Part shown: in pieces, positions 2,654 to 10,288 of the stretch
How positions within the stretch are numbered: the stretch's first letter is position 1
Layout of the letters: every line of letters starts with the position of its first letter
Assembly (NCBI GenBank): GCA_015523565.1
Contig: WAKA01000217.1
Location: 1 to 10,802 of the forward strand
Source of the DNA: Candidatus Heimdallarchaeota archaeon
GTDB lineage: Archaea > Asgardarchaeota > Heimdallarchaeia > Heimdallarchaeales > Kariarchaeaceae
Reading direction: 5' to 3'
Length of the DNA: 10,802 bases
The notes under the pieces: model-generated
What the model saw: only the letters and a program-made list of their open reading frames with translations
Told to the model about the DNA's origin: nothing
Database searches by the model: none
Made by a program: the position numbers and the translations under genes

Positions 2654-3640
2654 TTATTTCCTTTTTTTAAGAATGATAACTGCAAGGGTAATGAAAGTGG
2701 TTGAAATGAGCAATCCTGCTGTTTTTTGTGAGATGGTTTCAGATATGGTCTCAGATATTTTTTCAAGCGGCGAAGTGCTGGAGGTAGTTATTGTTGATTT
2801 GATTGGGCTTTCAGAGGGCATAAGGTCTTTTACCGAGAATGACCAAGAATCTGTTTCAAAAGTGATAAAGTTTATTTCCTCGATAGTGATTGCGTCTGAA
2901 ATGTAATGTGTCATTGTATAGATCGAATGAGAATCAGGATCAATTGACACTGTGTTGAAATAACTGTCAGTAACAATATATTTCAATTCTGTTGATGTTG
3001 GTAGATAGTACCGTCCATATTCACATGACCCTCCACCACTATAGACAAACAACATCCCATAATTTTTAGAAGGAATGGAACTAGTGGATATAGGCAAAAG
3101 ATATTTAGTTTCATTGTATGCGTTTATTTGAAGTAAGTCAATATCAAAGACGACAACTTGACCTGCTTCAGAAATTACGTACACATTTTGATCCAATGGG
3201 TAGTAGAAAGAAATGAAAAAGAAATCAGCAAAATATTCAGGGATTGTCAAGTTGTAAATCGATACAGTCCCATTGAATATTTCAACCCAAGATTTGTTAC
3301 TTGTGATATGTTCTTCCAACGAAATGCCATCCGTCTGCAAATACCAATCATAAGATAATTCCACATCATTTGACCACCGAGTTTCGTTTATGAGAGGAAA
3401 TTGTTCAAGCGATGCAGAGTTATTTATAAAATCCAGATATATTGGATCATCGATTTGTTCAGTTGAATTATCCGCGGCACTTGTCAGTTGCAATTTAAAG
3501 TAACCTTGATTTGAATTGATGAAGGTCAATTTTGACGAGGCATATGGGTCATCTACTATAAATGTGCATGCCTGCACGCTGATGATTGTTGGAATTAGGA
3601 AAAGAAAAATTAGAATATATAATGGATAGGATTTTTTCAT
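2654..3640 (-). CDS. Secreted, C-terminally membrane-anchored cell-surface protein (beta-rich ectodomain)
   Basis: Signal peptide MKKSYPLYILIFLFLIPTIISVQA|C, several N-x-S/T sequons (NNS, NET, NKS, NGT, NLT), a Ser/Thr/Pro-rich linker, then TAG-hydrophobic helix-KKRK at the C-terminus. Confidence 0.85.
   Translation of the reverse strand: MKKSYPLYILIFLFLIPTIISVQACTFIVDDPYASSKLTFINSNQGYFKLQLTSAADNSTEQIDDPIYLDFINNSASLEQFPLINETRWSNDVELSYDWYLQTDGISLEEHITSNKSWVEIFNGTVSIYNLTIPEYFADFFFISFYYPLDQNVYVISEAGQVVVFDIDLLQINAYNETKYLLPISTSSIPSKNYGMLFVYSGGGSCEYGRYYLPTSTELKYIVTDSYFNTVSIDPDSHSIYTMTHYISDAITIEEINFITFETDSWSFSVKDLMPSESPIKSTITTSSTSPLEKISETISETISQKTAGLLISTTFITLAVIILKKRK
2723..2758 (-). repeat. 12-bp tandem repeat encoding ISET-ISET-ISQK in the surface-protein linker
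   Basis: Minus-strand units are ATATCTGAGACC / ATATCTGAAACC / ATCTCACAAAAA. Confidence 0.7.
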
Positions 3641-3851: not shown

Positions 3852-4793
3852 ATGATTTTGCTGTCTAATGAAGATTTGAAAAATGTTCCTGAAATCATAC
3901 CAAGCACAAAACCTGGGGAAACAATCATAAGTCCAGACTCATTGTTGCAGAAGCCGCCGTCTCGACCTCAAATAGATCCGCATACCGCGGCAAGGGCTCA
4001 TCAAGAGCTTTCTCTGAGGGAAACCATGAAGAACATAAAAAAGACAGTAGTTGTACAAAGTGGGAAAGGAGGGGTTGGCAAATCCACAGTTACCTATAAT
4101 TTGGCATTAGCATTTGCGCGTGCAGGTTTTACAGTTGGCATTTTGGATGCAGATGTAACAGGGCCAAGCATTCCACTAATGGCGGGGTTATCTGGTCAAT
4201 TTGCTAAGATTGAGGGGAAAAAGATAGTACCTACTGAGAAAAATGGGGTTCATATAATCTCCATTGACCTTCTATTAAATCAGGACACACCAGTCATTTG
4301 GCGAGGACCACTGAAGATTGCGGCAATCAGGCAATTCCTGTCCGATGTGAAATGGCCGTCATTGGACATTCTTTTCATAGATTTGCCACCTGGGACGAGT
4401 GATGAGCCATTGACAGTCGCACAGCTATTTGACAACATTTCAGGGACAGTAATTGTGACGACACCGCAAAAGGTTGCTACGCATGATGTCAGAAAGTCCA
4501 TAGGTTTCGCCACAAAAGTTGGGATGCCAATTTTGGGCATTATAGAGAACATGTCTTCCTTAACATGCCCCCATTGTGGCAACAAGGTTCCCGTGTTTAG
4601 GTCTGGGGGTGGCAAGGAGCTTGCGGAGAAACTTGGCTTGGTTTTTCTTGGAGACATTCCCCTTGAACCGCAGGTTGTGATTGAGGCAGACGAAGGCAAA
4701 CCGTCTGTGTTATTGGACACTGAGTTTGCCAAGTCATTCAACAAGATTGCCAAAAAGGTTGCGAAGTTGCTTCAGTTAAAAATTGATGATTGA
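3852..4793 (+). CDS. mrp: Mrp/ApbC/Nbp35-family Fe-S cluster carrier ATPase (start may be TTG3858, behind the SD-like AGGAGATGA)
   Basis: Deviant Walker A SGKGGVGKST, LDADVTGPSIP, VIWRGP, IDLPPGTSDE, VTTPQ, GIIENMS and the C-terminal CPHC cluster-binding motif. Confidence 0.95.
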   Translation: MILLSNEDLKNVPEIIPSTKPGETIISPDSLLQKPPSRPQIDPHTAARAHQELSLRETMKNIKKTVVVQSGKGGVGKSTVTYNLALAFARAGFTVGILDADVTGPSIPLMAGLSGQFAKIEGKKIVPTEKNGVHIISIDLLLNQDTPVIWRGPLKIAAIRQFLSDVKWPSLDILFIDLPPGTSDEPLTVAQLFDNISGTVIVTTPQKVATHDVRKSIGFATKVGMPILGIIENMSSLTCPHCGNKVPVFRSGGGKELAEKLGLVFLGDIPLEPQVVIEADEGKPSVLLDTEFAKSFNKIAKKVAKLLQLKIDD

Positions 4794-4840
4794 ATTGGTG
4801 AGAAGTGAGAAGTTTAATACTTTTTGGACATTCTTGACTT

Positions 4841-5998
4841 ATGGAATTTGAGACAAAGGCGATTCATTTTGCACAGGAACCTGATAAGGAGACAGGGGCT
4901 GTGGTTCCTCCAATACATCTTAGCACTACATTCAAGCAGGACGGAGTTGGAAAGACGCGTGGAGGATTTGAATACAGTCGAACAGACAACCCAACCCGAC
5001 GAATTTTGGAAAAGAATGTTGCGGCGCTGGAAGGAGGAAAATATGGATTGGCATTTTCCTCAGGTTCAGCGGCAACTGCCACAATACAATTGATGTTAAA
5101 TTCGGGAGATCATGTAATTTGTGGAGATGATGTTTATGGCGGCACCTTCAGGTTTTTTGACAAGGTAATGAAGAACTTTTCCTTGAAATACTCATTTGTG
5201 GATACTCAAGACCTCTCGAAACTTGAAGGGGAAATAAGAAATGAGACAAGAATGATCTGGCTTGAAACGCCGACTAATCCATTGCTCAAGGTTTCAGACA
5301 TTGAGGCAATTTCAAGGATTGCAAAGGAAAATGATCTGCTATTGGTTGTTGACAACACATTTGCCTCTCCCTACTTGCAGAATCCTTTGGCACTAGGTGC
5401 AGATATCGTAGTTCATTCAACGACAAAATACATTGGAGGTCATTCGGATGTGGTTGGCGGCATTGTTGTGCTGAACGACAAGAAACTGTATGATAAGCTT
5501 CAATTCCTTCAAAACGCGGCAGGGGCTGTGCCTTCTCCCTTTGATTGTTGGTTAGTTCTACGTGGCATCAAGACGTTGGCATTACGAGCTGAAAGGCATT
5601 CTTCAAATGCGAAGGAAGTTGTTAACTTTTTGAACAAAAAGAAAAATGAGGGATTAGTAGAAAAGATATATTATCCATTTTTGGGTGAAAAATCGAGTCT
5701 TGCCAAGAAGCAGATGAAAAAAGGAGGAGGAATGGTTTCCTTTGAGATTAAAGGTGGAGCGGATGAAGCTAAAGGATTTTTGAAACATTTAAAATATTTC
5801 CACTTGGCAGAATCCCTTGGCGGTGTTGAAAGTTTGGCGGAATACCCTCCAGAAATGACGCATGGATCATATACGGAAGAGGAAAGGTTGGAAAGGGGAA
5901 TAAGACCTAATTTAATTAGACTGAGTGTAGGGATTGAAAATGCAAAAGACTTGATTGATGATCTTAAGAATGCATTCGAATTAACATTTGGGAAATAA
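4841..5998 (+). CDS. PLP-dependent transsulfuration enzyme, most likely cystathionine gamma-lyase (Cys/Met metabolism family)
   Basis: STTFKQ, EYSRTDNPTR, DDVYGGT, ETPTNP, VDNTF, HSTTKYIGGHSD (PLP lysine), AESLGGVESLAEYP and IRLSVGIE. TTTAATA at 4813-4819 suggests its own promoter. Confidence 0.93.
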   Translation: MEFETKAIHFAQEPDKETGAVVPPIHLSTTFKQDGVGKTRGGFEYSRTDNPTRRILEKNVAALEGGKYGLAFSSGSAATATIQLMLNSGDHVICGDDVYGGTFRFFDKVMKNFSLKYSFVDTQDLSKLEGEIRNETRMIWLETPTNPLLKVSDIEAISRIAKENDLLLVVDNTFASPYLQNPLALGADIVVHSTTKYIGGHSDVVGGIVVLNDKKLYDKLQFLQNAAGAVPSPFDCWLVLRGIKTLALRAERHSSNAKEVVNFLNKKKNEGLVEKIYYPFLGEKSSLAKKQMKKGGGMVSFEIKGGADEAKGFLKHLKYFHLAESLGGVESLAEYPPEMTHGSYTEEERLERGIRPNLIRLSVGIENAKDLIDDLKNAFELTFGK

Positions 5999-6002
5999 AT
6001 CT

Positions 6003-6284
6003 TCATTTCAAATCAAGTTTCTGTTTGACTTGTTCAATCGGCAAGTCAATTTCAAGAGTTTTGTCAGTGGAAGTAGCGCCAGAAACAATTCTCAACATAC
6101 TTGAAGAAATCCCAAGAGACTTAGACAGTTTTTTAATTATTTCTTGATTGGCCTTTCCTTTGGTAGGGGCTGATTTTACATGGATAATAATGGCATCGTC
6201 GTCCTGGACGATTTTGAACTTGTTTGCCCTTGTCTTGACCCTTATTTTCAATCTGGTAGCATCCTGGTTAGTCACCACAACCAT
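6003..6284 (-). CDS. DUF167/YggU (UPF0235) family protein; start re-called to ATG6284 (or GTG6278/6275)
   Basis: RLKIRVK...IHVKSAPTKGKAN.EIIKKL...IVSGATSTDK matches the family pattern (V.apP..GkAN...ivsG.tsr.K). The extension to 6395 would overlap the divergent promoter and the profilin start. Confidence 0.88.
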   Translation of the reverse strand: MVVVTNQDATRLKIRVKTRANKFKIVQDDDAIIIHVKSAPTKGKANQEIIKKLSKSLGISSSMLRIVSGATSTDKTLEIDLPIEQVKQKLDLK

Positions 6285-6342
6285 TACATAGACGATCAAT
6301 ATATGATTATTTGTACTTTGTACCATTGTCCACCACAAAGCA

Positions 6343-6375
6343 TTATAATAATGAAGATGAAGGAGAAATGGAGGT
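6343..6375 (+). promoter_or_regulatory. TATA box plus Shine-Dalgarno site for profilin
   Basis: TTATAATA at 6343-6350 and GGAGGT at 6370-6375, 9 nt before ATG6385. Confidence 0.6.
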
Positions 6376-6384
6376 AAACGAGTA

Positions 6385-6747
6385 ATGTCGTTCAATGAAC
6401 TTGCAGAAAAAGCAGTAAGTGAAGGAATTGTGGGAGTGGGATTCCTGTTAGACCCTCAAGGCAACATTTATTGGTCTGTTGGCGAATGGCCAGGATTTGA
6501 TCCCATGGCAGTCATTCAAGCCTGGCAAAGAGGAGACAATGCAATAGTCGTCAATGACTTGAGATTCAGTGTCATCAATAAGGGTGATGACAAATATGTC
6601 TTGACAAACATGCAACAGCAAGGTCATATCATAGTTGCAAAATGCATGTTTTGGGACGGATATGTCGTTGCATGGGCACCATCTACCGTTCAAAACACGG
6701 TTGCTTACGCTGAAGTCGCCAGAATGGCCAATGCTGTTCGTTCATGA
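6385..6747 (+). CDS. Asgard-type profilin (actin-monomer-binding eukaryotic signature protein)
   Basis: 120 aa with profilin topology: N-helix, LLDPQGNIYW...W, IVVNDLRFSVI (cf. i.i.GvkY.vi), YVLTNMQQQGHIIVA (cf. Asgard TNi.g.GHl.), YVVAW and a C-terminal helix. It has a strong SD. Confidence 0.85.
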   Translation: MSFNELAEKAVSEGIVGVGFLLDPQGNIYWSVGEWPGFDPMAVIQAWQRGDNAIVVNDLRFSVINKGDDKYVLTNMQQQGHIIVAKCMFWDGYVVAWAPSTVQNTVAYAEVARMANAVRS

Positions 6748-6789
6748 ATGTAAAAAATAGTTTAAGTGAGAAAAAAACAATTATATGTT

Positions 6790-7359
6790 GTGGGTTTATT
6801 TAGAAAGAAGAATAAAAGTAAGAAGAAACAATATTCAAGTGAGATACATAAGTCCTTGAATCAAAAGGTAAAAGGATATGAATCATATGATTCACCTGAA
6901 GAAAGGAAAAAAACAGATCTTGCCTTCAGAGAATACCTATATGAGCAAGTCATTGAAATGGTCAAGTATTTTGCCCAAATTAAGGATTACCTGATACGAT
7001 TGCAAATACTTTCAACATGGTCAGCGGCAGAGAGCATAACAAAAAATCTTAACAGGATGAAATACCTGTTGACTGCAAAAAACGATGAGGTTTATCGGCA
7101 TTCCACCTTTTTTGACAGTCCAAAGATTTCTGAATGGATAGAAATTTCTGTTTTGTATATCATTGAATCAGAGATGATCCTGATAGCTGATGAAATCCTA
7201 AGACAGATGAAAGACATGCTTGAGGGATTTCAAAAGGAGGAAGCCATGCAGATTGAATTGAAAATAATGGAAATTGAGAAAGGAGTCAGGGAATTGACAA
7301 GTTCATTGAATGAACGGGCAGAGCTTATCGCGTCATTTGAAATCATGGCATTGGAGTAG
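6790..7359 (+). CDS. Uncharacterised all-helical/coiled-coil protein with a polybasic N-terminus; start re-called from GTG6766 to GTG6790
   Basis: TTTAAG at 6761-6766 fits a leaderless start at 6790, giving MGLFRKKNKSKKK. KGYESY...ERKKTDLAFREYL and STFFDSPKI resemble a prokaryotic hypothetical family (PGy.GY...rR..D...R.yl; gfFD.vki), recalled from memory. Confidence 0.75.
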   Translation: MGLFRKKNKSKKKQYSSEIHKSLNQKVKGYESYDSPEERKKTDLAFREYLYEQVIEMVKYFAQIKDYLIRLQILSTWSAAESITKNLNRMKYLLTAKNDEVYRHSTFFDSPKISEWIEISVLYIIESEMILIADEILRQMKDMLEGFQKEEAMQIELKIMEIEKGVRELTSSLNERAELIASFEIMALE

Positions 7360-7365
7360 GATGGA

Positions 7366-8406
7366 TCAATCGTCTTCCAATTTGCCTGCTATTCTTTCCA
7401 AGGTTTTGTTAATGTTATAAAGCATGAGCATGACCTGATCAAGCCCTTCAATGGTTAGAACAGGTTTTCCATGCTGTGCTTCCAATTCCTTTGTTTCCCT
7501 GAGTGCATTTGCCAAAAAAGCCCTTAGTATTCGGACAGTTAAGTCCTCAACATCAAAGTTATCCATTGAAATTTGGGATGAGATTTCTTCTACATCTACA
7601 TCTTTCATGAAATCCTCAATCAATTTTTGGCTTGCAACATTGATGATTTCCTCATCAGATTTTGTTTCAGGAGGAACAAATTGAATTTCCAATTTTTGGG
7701 GCATTGTTTGATTATCCTGTCCTTTAATAGGGTCATAGAGACCAACCAGCCAATCAACATATTGCTTGAAAATCTGGTAATTGGATTCATTTTTCAAACC
7801 AATTGGACTATCATCAAAAACAGACAGGGATCCCACAACGATAATGCGTCCTGTTTGGGCGACTGAAGATCGGGCAACAGCAGTCTGCATCCCCCCCGAT
7901 GCTGAAGGGCTTGTTACCAATAACGCCTGCTGAGGTTGGGTTTGGATGGCAATGGCATTGTTCATGGGGATATATTGAATTCTTTTTGGATTGGGGATTG
8001 ATTCAGTTGGCATTACCAATATTGTGGATGGATCCTTATTGTAATTTTTAGACGGATCAAAAATTATTTTATGCTTAAGTTCAATTTGGAATGGTTTAAG
8101 AAGATTGTTCAAATGAACGACATCCTCCTGTTTTTCTAGATCACCGACCATTAGGAGAATGTTTCCACCTCGATTGACATAACTGATAACCGATTGGATT
8201 TCCATAGGGCGGTATTTGACGGATGAAGTCACAAGAAGTATAAGTAAATCATACTTGTCCAAATCTTCCAAATCAAGCCTGTTTGTCAGTGAACTCATTA
8301 AAAATCCTTTTGATATAAAAAAAGATTGCATTCGATGAAAACGTTGTGACAGCAATATTCCTTGCCCTTGAGAAATATCAAAAGCCACTTGCTTGACTTT
8401 TGTCAT
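7366..8406 (-). CDS. Cytoplasmic GIFT (GldG/IFT52-like, class I glutamine-amidotransferase-like fold) domain protein with an acidic helical C-terminal region; start re-called to ATG8406
   Basis: VAFDISQGQ, LEDLDKYDLLIL, EIQSVISYVNRGGNILLM, HLNNLLKPFQIEL and GRIIVVGSLSVFDD...N...F.QYVDWL follow the GIFT/DUF4350 pattern. No signal peptide or TM segment. TTTAAATA at 8427-8434 (minus strand) is correctly spaced for ATG8406. Confidence 0.75.
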   Translation of the reverse strand: MTKVKQVAFDISQGQGILLSQRFHRMQSFFISKGFLMSSLTNRLDLEDLDKYDLLILLVTSSVKYRPMEIQSVISYVNRGGNILLMVGDLEKQEDVVHLNNLLKPFQIELKHKIIFDPSKNYNKDPSTILVMPTESIPNPKRIQYIPMNNAIAIQTQPQQALLVTSPSASGGMQTAVARSSVAQTGRIIVVGSLSVFDDSPIGLKNESNYQIFKQYVDWLVGLYDPIKGQDNQTMPQKLEIQFVPPETKSDEEIINVASQKLIEDFMKDVDVEEISSQISMDNFDVEDLTVRILRAFLANALRETKELEAQHGKPVLTIEGLDQVMLMLYNINKTLERIAGKLEDD

Positions 8407-8497
8407 TATTATACATTGTCTCATGCTATTTAAAAATATATTATATCTTCCAAATTTTTCAACTCATTTATGGATTTAAACATGTATCGCTTATTCA

Positions 8498-8505
8498 TTT
8501 TATAA
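8498..8505 (+). promoter_or_regulatory. TATA box for DNA ligase
   Basis: TTTTATAA lies 23-30 nt upstream of GTG8528. Confidence 0.55.
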
Positions 8506-8527
8506 GGGGGGGTTTGGTTGGGGGATT

Positions 8528-10288
8528 GTGGATTTCAAAGATTTGTGCAATTGGTTTGACAAATTGGAACAAACCACCAAACGATTGGAAATGATTTCAA
8601 TCCTGCATGAACTTCTGGATATTTTAAGCATTGAGGAAATCCCACCTGCTGTTTATCTTTCCACAGGCGAATTGGGACCAAAATATGATGTCATGGTACT
8701 GGGTTTTCAAGAAAAAAGCGTCATGAAGATTCTCTCCAATCTGACAATGGTTCCATTGGATGTCATTGACAAAAAGTTCAAGGAAGTGGGTGATTTGGGA
8801 GACATAGTTTTTTCAATAGGGGATAAGGGATCACAGACAGGGTTGATGGATTTCCTTGGGGAAACAGAACCAAAGTCCAAACAAAGTATTTTAGATGTAT
8901 GGAAACAGTTGGAGAAAATCTCCAAAATTGAGGGGGAAAATTCAGAAGTCAAGAAATTCAATTCCGCTCTTGTCTTGTTAAAGGATATGGAACCTATAGA
9001 GAGAAAATATTTGGTTAGAACACTTGTGGGGAAAGTCAGGTTAGGAGCAAAAGAATCAACGTGGCTTGATGCCACCAGCAAAAAGACAGGAATTGAAATT
9101 GATCTGTTGGATCTTGCTGCGGCAATCAGGAGCAATATAGGGTTAGTCATCCAAACTGCGATAAGAAAGGGAAAAGAAGGGATTGAGAGGCTTCACATTC
9201 CAAAAGTTGGCATTCCAATCATGCCAATGCTTCCACACCGGGGAGAATCTTCAGAGGACATATGGAACCGAATGGAAGGGAAATGTGAAATTGAGATCAA
9301 ATATGACGGGTTCAGAATTCAAGTGCACAAAAGTGGGAACAAAATTTATCTTTGGTCAAGAAATGAGGAATCATATAATGAATATTTCCCAGAATTGGTA
9401 AAGGAACTTCCAAAAACAATTAAGGCAAATGATGTAATTCTCGACGGGGAAGTGGTTGCCTTCAATCAACAGACAGGGGAGATGATGCCTTTTCAAAAAT
9501 TGACCAATAGAAGGAGAATATATGGAGTCAAGGAAATTGCAGCAGAGATCAAGGTAAAAATTTTTGTTTTTGACATATTGTTCAAGGATGGCAAATCCAT
9601 TTTCAAACTGCCTTTAGTTGAGAGAAGGAAATTTTTGCGTGATACATTTTCGGATAGTGAACTAATGGGAATAAGTATCTCTTGGTCTTGTGAAACCCCA
9701 GAAGATATAGACCAACAGCTTTTGGAGGCAAAGGAACAGAATCGAGAGGGGATTATGGTTAAATCACTGCTTTCGCCATATGAACCAGGAAAACGCTCAT
9801 TTTATTGGTTAAAATATAAAGCAGACTATGAAAAAAGTCTATCTGACACTTTTGACTTGGTCATTGTCGGAGGATGGAAGGGCAGAGGCAAGAGAGCAGG
9901 GGTTTATGGCACTTTGTTGATGGCGGCATATGACCCTGACAGTGAGACATATATGACATTTTGTAAATTAGGGGCAGGATTGACAGAAGAAGATATGAAA
10001 ACATTGACATCTGAGATGGAAGAGTTAAAGGTACCAGAAAAGCCCAAAGATGTCATTTCCAATTTGGATCCTGACATTTGGGTCAAGCCAAAAATCATAT
10101 TGGAGGTATCAGGAGCGGAAATTTCGAAATCACCAGTGCATACAGTTCCTTCGAGTGAAGGAGGCACACTCTCCCTTCGTTTTCCGCGTTATACAGGCAA
10201 CAGAAGATTTGAGAAATCGGTTCCCGATGATGTTACAACTGTTGCAGAAATCAATGAGATGGCAAAAATAATGAGAATCGGAAAATAA
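8528..10288 (+). CDS. lig: ATP-dependent DNA ligase (archaeal/LigI type: DBD + adenylation + OB domains)
   Basis: Motif I EIKYDGFR, III ILDGEVV, IIIa VFDILF, IV EGIMVK, V WLKYK and VI SLRFPRY. N-terminal DNA-binding domain with GDLG. Confidence 0.97.
   Translation: MDFKDLCNWFDKLEQTTKRLEMISILHELLDILSIEEIPPAVYLSTGELGPKYDVMVLGFQEKSVMKILSNLTMVPLDVIDKKFKEVGDLGDIVFSIGDKGSQTGLMDFLGETEPKSKQSILDVWKQLEKISKIEGENSEVKKFNSALVLLKDMEPIERKYLVRTLVGKVRLGAKESTWLDATSKKTGIEIDLLDLAAAIRSNIGLVIQTAIRKGKEGIERLHIPKVGIPIMPMLPHRGESSEDIWNRMEGKCEIEIKYDGFRIQVHKSGNKIYLWSRNEESYNEYFPELVKELPKTIKANDVILDGEVVAFNQQTGEMMPFQKLTNRRRIYGVKEIAAEIKVKIFVFDILFKDGKSIFKLPLVERRKFLRDTFSDSELMGISISWSCETPEDIDQQLLEAKEQNREGIMVKSLLSPYEPGKRSFYWLKYKADYEKSLSDTFDLVIVGGWKGRGKRAGVYGTLLMAAYDPDSETYMTFCKLGAGLTEEDMKTLTSEMEELKVPEKPKDVISNLDPDIWVKPKIILEVSGAEISKSPVHTVPSSEGGTLSLRFPRYTGNRRFEKSVPDDVTTVAEINEMAKIMRIGK

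Follow-up and report, generated by a model that had tools for sequence, protein, structure and literature searches.

A divergent soluble GIFT-domain protein of a Heimdallarchaeon combines an IFT52-type head with its own tail and keeps a conserved chromosomal slot

Based on profile searches, predicted structures, phylogeny and gene order, we have characterized a gene of a Candidatus Heimdallarchaeota archaeon whose product begins with a GIFT domain; among curated families and solved structures, IFT52 is the closest match to this head. The gene lies on the minus strand of a stretch of 10,802 nucleotides (contig WAKA01000217.1, hereafter the window). We consider it likely that the protein is a cytosolic, non-enzymatic scaffold or adaptor in which an IFT52-type head is joined to a lineage-specific tail, and that it represents the local ortholog of an Asgard-wide family. 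The head would act as a protein-docking platform, as in IFT52 and OST48, and the tail would serve self-association or the binding of a partner, which is perhaps encoded by the same gene cluster; the gene itself occupies the canonical slot beside a replicative-type DNA ligase, a ~190-aa protein, a profilin and a DUF167 protein. GIFT-domain scaffold proteins are already known, and what sets this case apart is a divergent subfamily with its own tail together with its positional orthology. We refer to the full-length relatives of the window protein as W, and to proteins with a soluble GIFT head and varied coiled-coil tails as S.

The coding sequence spans positions 7366..8406 (minus strand) and specifies 346 residues, followed by a stop codon at 7366-7368. 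The ORF listing and translation give a surrounding open frame of 7366..8424, and the start was set at 8406 because all three close orthologs (~60% identity) begin at the equivalent methionine, so that the coordinates of the initial sequence-only reading are right. Directly upstream is an AT-rich divergent intergenic region of 121 nt (8407..8527), common to this gene and the divergently oriented DNA ligase gene; it is the putative promoter region of the GIFT gene, and a TATA-like TTTTTAAATA box was read on the coding strand ~25 nt upstream of the start codon. A hydropathy scan of the protein detected no membrane or signal-like segment, in agreement with the earlier statement that it lacks an export signal, and the protein is predicted to be soluble and cytosolic.

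The head (residues 1-228; 7723..8406, minus strand) is a cysteine-free GIFT domain of the IFT52 type with a GATase1-like fold. Its best Pfam family is PF23355 (IFT52_GIFT), with an E-value of 4e-8 and 33 bits (gathering score 27.2). As a single sequence the protein matched the IFT52 chains of the PDB weakly (E 0.14), and a profile built from nine full-length members of its family recovered Chlamydomonas and mouse IFT52 with E-values of 2e-13 to 5e-12; these were the only significant matches, the next being OST48 (E 0.8). The AF2 model has a pLDDT of 85.7, exceeding 92 over residues 1-225. Foldseek ranked IFT52N chains in the first five places for this model (E 3e-13 to 1e-9; target-normalised TM 0.72-0.81) and OST48 below them (E 3e-8), with a possible slight bias toward IFT52, since the 82-row alignment underlying the model included eukaryotic IFT52 heads. 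An exhaustive VIA search, limited to residues 1-225, aligned IFT52N (5fms_A) with a Z-score of 24.3 and an rmsd of 2.6 A over 217 residues, followed by OST48 (Z 21.0 and 18.3) and S1P (Z 17.3), and the top structural matches all have GIFT or flavodoxin-like GATase1 folds. The identity to IFT52 is ~17-20%, and the likeness is confirmed as far above chance. The segments from which an IFT52-like GIFT domain had been recognized in the N-terminal ~220 residues (YVNRGGNILLMVGD, LNNLLKPFQI, GRIIVVGSLSVFDD and QYVDWL) are all found in the protein and align with their counterparts in Chlamydomonas IFT52; Pfam, family profile, Foldseek and VIA agree on this assignment. Since the protein contains no cysteine, and with it no GATase1 nucleophile, we favour a docking role without catalysis for the head, in line with IFT52N, which has been described as devoid of catalytic residues (PMC4818760). 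The GGD...TN motif, which IFT52 and the other family members retain, is missing from the window's genus, and the function of the head may therefore have changed in this genus.

The head is followed by a flexible Pro/Gln linker (residues 229-250; 7657..7722, minus strand) with three Pro and four Gln, in which the AF2 pLDDT falls below 50 over residues 237-246; its length and sequence differ among relatives. The subfamily-specific C-terminal domain (residues 251-346; 7369..7656, minus strand) is acidic, with 22 acidic versus 10 basic residues and a net charge of ~-12, and comprises four predicted helices (251-269, 272-278, 286-312 and 320-345) modelled with moderate confidence (pLDDT ~70). Composition and AF2 helices thus agree with the linker and acidic helical tail that had been described from the translation. 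This tail is the best-conserved part of the protein among close orthologs and is strongly conserved across the W subfamily. Searches for its relatives yielded no Pfam family, no PDB sequence match and no Atlas neighbour, and a profile-profile comparison with the post-GIFT region of 20 eukaryotic IFT52 proteins (hhalign) gave a probability of 0.1%. Of the IFT52-like architecture proposed earlier, a soluble protein made of a head, a linker and a helical tail stands, but the tail is unrelated to the central and C-terminal regions of IFT52 and the common layout is therefore an analogy.

Beyond the head, the protein has no other part of IFT52. Residues K130 and R204 of IFT52N are required for the binding of IFT-B2 (IFT57/38) (PMC4818760) and are invariant in 17 eukaryotic IFT52 proteins; in the W family the two sites are occupied by S/N/T and T/A/I/Y, respectively, and they vary in the S family too. 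The central IFT88/IFT70-binding region (PF23352) gave no Pfam match in the protein, and the C-terminal IFT46-binding domain (PF21178, Itf52_C) none in the protein or in the whole genome. IFT46 itself (PF12317) was without a match in this ~90% complete genome, in a search whose model had no positive control. For IFT57 (PF10498) the genome contains an 18.8-bit sub-threshold coiled-coil match of a kind also seen in control genomes, which is probably noise. Taken alone, the window gene is no evidence for an archaeal transport machine.

The distribution of the head is much wider than that of the tail. When 1.84 billion representative proteins were searched exhaustively with a profile, only six full-length relatives (P0003 and P0005-P0009; E <= 1e-42) came up and, beyond a score gap, ~270 GIFT-domain proteins, the best-scoring of which make up the large S set. 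The named W members belong to Heimdallarchaeota and Kariarchaeaceae, and a search for related loci provided three Heimdallarchaeota loci; the W tail was present in three of 151 genomes sampled from the phylum, each of them belonging to the window's genus. PF23355, on the other hand, was matched in 147 of these 151 genomes (141 above the cut-off) versus none of 14 control genomes, and by all 48 soluble relatives tested (best 1e-28). The named relatives are all Asgard archaea (Promethearchaeota, Heimdallarchaeota, Jordarchaeaceae). Judging from these matches, a predicted soluble IFT52-type GIFT family is carried by nearly all Asgard archaea; its absence elsewhere refers to the 14 control genomes and to the names of the database matches. 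A full-text literature search found no paper on such a family, and GIFT is unmentioned in a survey of ESCRT proteins (PMC10936438).

The chromosomal neighbourhood connects the two kinds of protein. In the window, the gene of the ~190-aa helical protein (6766..7359, plus strand; likely start GTG 6790, MGLFRKK...) converges on the GIFT gene, and the ATP-dependent DNA ligase gene (8528..10288, plus strand; Pfam DNA_ligase_A_N, _M and _C) is oriented divergently from it; these three genes therefore do not form one operon there. The next gene encodes a 120-aa profilin (6385..6747, plus strand), whose profile matches Asgard profilin structures (5zza_P at 2e-13, 7pbh_A at 5e-13); the initial recognition of a profilin two genes away was correct, exactly one gene (6766/6790-7359) standing between it and the GIFT gene. 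It is followed on the minus strand by a DUF167/YggU-family gene (6003..6395; PF02594, 4.5e-19 over ORF residues 47-117); as the ORF in its listed form runs into the start of the profilin gene, translation probably begins at an internal codon. The S loci L016-L019 come from three genomes of the same order and one of the same class, and in all four, L017 included, the GIFT gene is followed on the same strand by the ligase gene; in the same-order loci (L016, L018, L019) the genes of the ~190-aa protein and the profilin come next. W loci whose GIFT proteins are only ~30% identical retain these three neighbours and the DUF167 gene, in differing orders and orientations. Profilin orthologs occur in every related locus (E 1e-31 to 1e-37 in same-order genomes), those of the ~190-aa protein in all W loci and beside the same-order S-type GIFT-ligase pairs (E 1e-30 to 1e-33), and the DUF167 gene in L001, L004, L008, L009 and L010. 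Searches of Pfam and the PDB placed the ~190-aa protein in no family, and the Atlas yielded no informative cluster for it; a relationship to the SNARE motif of Syntaxin-13 was considered and rejected, the match being too weak (E 0.044).

An S profile searched against the window's own genome retrieved the window gene as its best match (110.8 bits, E 8e-32) and revealed no separate S-type paralog. Furthermore, the best BLAST matches that W members have outside their own subfamily invariably come from the S family, Heimdall proteins among them, and never from IFT52. Considering this lack of a separate S gene, the BLAST matches and the synteny together, we read W as a putative fast-evolving local ortholog of the canonical S GIFT protein, in which the tail would have been exchanged and the slot kept. 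The conservation of the cluster could simply be synteny inherited within one class, with no functional link between the genes.

The same neighbourhood could be taken to mean that the protein is an accessory DNA replication or repair scaffold working with the adjacent ATP-dependent ligase, which we consider unlikely. Of 11 loci examined in this class, 10 have the ligase gene directly beside a GIFT gene, for W and S types alike; relatives mostly have the pair running in one direction, 33-136 nt apart, and after the inversion in the window they still have their 121-nt divergent intergenic region in common. However, this adjacency is missing in L010 (Kariarchaeaceae) and in G001 (the single genome examined of another family of the phylum), and it may be inherited gene order. 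Neither a PCNA-type motif nor a nucleic-acid-binding domain was found in the GIFT protein, and inspection by eye detected no PCNA-binding PIP motif in it or in the ~190-aa protein. It seems quite improbable that the protein belongs to an actin-cytoskeleton or membrane-remodelling module with the profilin and the helical protein, whose N-terminus is basic. Such a module would account for the presence of both genes at most three genes away in every W locus and in the three same-order S loci, for their co-directional arrangement in the window, 19-43 nt apart, and for the small GTPases met among relatives: a Ras-like GTPase is fused to GIFT in one of them, and an Arf/Ras/Roc GTPase gene adjoins another. 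Nevertheless, the GIFT protein is devoid of known actin- or membrane-binding domains, and the block also includes housekeeping genes (the ligase, ribH, an amidohydrolase and a cystathionine lyase), so that its preservation is maybe plain synteny. A complex prediction for the GIFT protein and the ~190-aa protein scored 0.00, which speaks neither for nor against binding. A cytosolic scaffold or adaptor belonging to the Asgard-wide family is the reading that we prefer over both.

The relation of this family to IFT52 was approached by profile and by tree. Eukaryotic IFT52 proteins were gathered with an 80-residue stretch of the Chlamydomonas protein, and green algae dominate this set, next to protists. 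The resulting head profile gave median scores of 71 bits for S, 46 for W and 36 for secreted or membrane-bound GIFT domains; among Asgard GIFT proteins, S thus comes closer to IFT52 than the window protein does. A quick tree of 113 domains set S, W and IFT52 apart (SH-aLRT 92) from the majority of the secreted or membrane domains and left the branching order of the three unresolved. A careful maximum-likelihood tree of 81 domains (LG+C20 PMSF), from a sample with a narrow choice of eukaryotes and without OST48, S1P or typical GldG, recovered W (100/99), IFT52 (100/100) and S (100/94), and placed W as sister to IFT52 with a bootstrap of 88 and an SH-aLRT of 65. The two longest stems, with 1.2 and 1.7 changes per site, are those of W and IFT52; when W was removed, IFT52 shifted to long-branched GldG-like domains that are presumed bacterial, and a forced IFT52+S clade cost 3.25 lnL units and was not rejected (AU p 0.38). 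The pairing of W with IFT52 is therefore insecure and is probably a case of long-branch attraction. That the ML tree sets W next to IFT52 and not within the S clade conflicts with the synteny-based orthology, unless rate acceleration distorts the tree.

The first reading had suggested that the window protein may stand close to the origin of an intraflagellar-transport component. The homology of the head survives from this proposal, and the phylogeny does draw W beside IFT52, but this pairing is weak and unstable and the S family is closer by profile. The IFT52 head may nonetheless descend from the nearly universal Asgard soluble GIFT-head family, possibly via a fast-evolving Heimdall version; we put this forward tentatively, as a possibility against which the balance at present leans. 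That the W subfamily itself is more closely related to the IFT52 head than any other extant protein, and thus a relic of the ancestor of the IFT scaffold, is in our opinion very unlikely. The careful tree, the rank of IFT52 as best match by sequence and structure, and the soluble head-linker-tail layout common to both would agree with this idea, whereas the long stems, the behaviour of IFT52 upon removal of W and the AU result on IFT52+S weaken it, as do the preference of the IFT52 profile for S, the unrelated tails and the absence of K130/R204. Moreover, synteny and BLAST link W to Heimdall S-type genes, and the tree was drawn from mostly green algal eukaryotes with OST48, S1P and typical GldG outside it. 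The W subfamily is rather a cautionary case, a divergent GIFT version drawn beside IFT52 in trees, apparently as an artefact. Least probable is that the head works as an enzyme, be it a hydrolase or an amidotransferase, of the GATase1, ThuA or glycosidase-associated kind: it has a fold in common with GATase1, ThuA-like and GH42 domain B proteins (VIA Z 12-16, ThuA and GATase enzymes reaching at most 16), but composition analysis counts zero cysteines in the whole protein, so that the GATase1 nucleophile is absent, and the non-catalytic IFT52N and OST48 match best, the enzyme families scoring at least 8 Z units lower.

To our knowledge, the IFT-B core has no traced prokaryotic ancestry beyond its coatomer-like and GTPase subunits. 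GIFT domains are known to connect IFT52, OST48 and bacterial GldG, and we know of no cytosolic archaeal protein among them. A near-universal soluble Asgard protein with an IFT52-type head is thus a useful lead for the study of eukaryogenesis, and the conserved cluster of ligase, new helical protein, profilin and DUF167 is a source of candidate partners. If the descent of the IFT52 head from this family were true, the family would be an unrecognised eukaryotic signature protein and the first traceable archaeal precursor of an IFT-core component that is neither coatomer-like nor a GTPase, and its archaeal partners (ligase, ~190-aa protein, profilin and small GTPases) would hint at a role preceding the cilium.

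Among known GIFT systems, GldG/ABC_transp_aux (PF09822) and DUF4350 (PF14258) proteins have the same superfamily fold as the window head, and are typically extracytoplasmic with membrane segments. The window protein scores far below the Pfam cut-offs of both (18.3 bits versus 34.7 and 16.3 versus 30.4, respectively), in the trees secreted and membrane-bound GIFT domains fall into groups of their own, and its separation from these generic families, on which the initial reading depended, is upheld. A protein of this GldG/ABC-auxiliary type, P0188 (PF23355 and PF23357), was examined as a candidate eukaryotic IFT52 and set aside; it has membrane segments and is presumed bacterial. The N-terminal domain of OST48/Wbp1 (PF03345) and the fourth domain of S1P/MBTPS1 (PF23090) have the same fold and a weak sequence likeness, again below the cut-offs (29.7 bits versus 36 and 25.6 versus 27, respectively). 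OST48 and S1P are lumenal or membrane-anchored proteins, unlike the window protein, which has no signal or membrane segment. IFT52 (OSM-6/BLD1) of the IFT-B1 core (PF23355; 5FMR, 5FMS and 8BD7 chain B) has a head homologous to that of the window protein, and both are soluble, non-catalytic proteins in which the head is followed by a flexible linker and, toward the C-terminus, by helices; IFT52 possesses PF23352, PF21178 and K130/R204, whereas the window protein has none of the three. The S family (P0013, P0021 and the Heimdall-type L016:6066-7457) resembles W in its head, its soluble layout and its chromosomal slot. Compared with it, the head of the window protein is fast-diverged with a long stem: the S motifs PDGSK, HPIT and GCS are missing from W, the distant W members retain GGD..TN alone, and this last motif too is lost in the window's genus. 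The W tail is a distinct four-helix domain, found beyond that genus in a handful of Heimdall and Kariarchaeaceae relatives from metagenomes. The window gene illustrates how a member of this family can evolve rapidly and take on another tail, yet retain its place on the chromosome.

Within the cluster, the ~190-aa helical protein (window 6766-7359, + strand, likely start GTG 6790) is encoded next to the GIFT and ATP-dependent DNA ligase genes in all related loci, including same-order loci of the S type, i.e. those of the widespread Asgard family with a soluble GIFT head and a helical tail. Its N-terminus is basic (MGLFRKKNKSKKK), the core YRHSTFFDSPK...VLYI.ESE is conserved and the C-terminal ERAEL..SFEI is invariant. 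No family membership was found for it in Pfam or PDB; at E 0.044, its weak match to the SNARE motif of Syntaxin-13 is probably noise. The profilin gene (6385-6747, + strand) encodes a compact Asgard profilin of 120 aa, whose profile matches the solved Asgard profilin structures 5zza_P, 7pbh_A and 6yrr_A (E 2e-13 to 5e-11) and whose identity among related loci is 41-83%. A further cluster companion is the DUF167/YggU gene (6003-6395, - strand), with orthologs of 97-117 aa; since the listed ORF carries ~46 surplus N-terminal residues overlapping the profilin start, its true start is probably internal. Elsewhere in the window, a 328-aa ORF (2654-3640, - strand) without a detected Pfam family probably encodes a surface protein: its N-terminus is signal-like, it has a stalk rich in Ser/Thr, and its C-terminus carries a membrane anchor.

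The GIFT head also occurs in proteins of other architectures. The second PF23355-scoring ORF of the window's genome (634 aa; G000:C181, corresponding to positions 712-2616 of locus L005, + strand) has a signal-like segment at its N-terminus, a membrane anchor at its C-terminus and numerous N-x-S/T sequons. In contrast to the soluble protein of the window, it is a predicted extracytoplasmic GIFT protein. Two relatives from Helarchaeales and related lineages, P0032 and P0106, pair an IFT52-type head with just one hydrophobic segment, located at the very C-terminal end, and are putative tail-anchored counterparts of the soluble family. Small GTPases, which are also found among IFT-B components, turn up twice among these proteins and loci: in the metagenomic S-family member P0031 (468 aa) the GIFT head is fused to a Ras-like small GTPase at the C-terminus, with the P-loop at residue 300, and in L009, a locus of the divergent Heimdall-type W subfamily that includes the window's protein, a 344-aa Arf/Ras/Roc GTPase gene (4751-5785, - strand) adjoins the GIFT gene divergently.

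The head itself is modified in the window's genus, where GDLEKQEDVVHLN replaces the GGD(E/K)..TN motif at residues ~88-100 (window 8100-8140 region). Remoter W members, the S family and IFT52 (as EGGE..TN) all retain the motif. Its replacement suggests that constraint on the head has been relaxed or altered.
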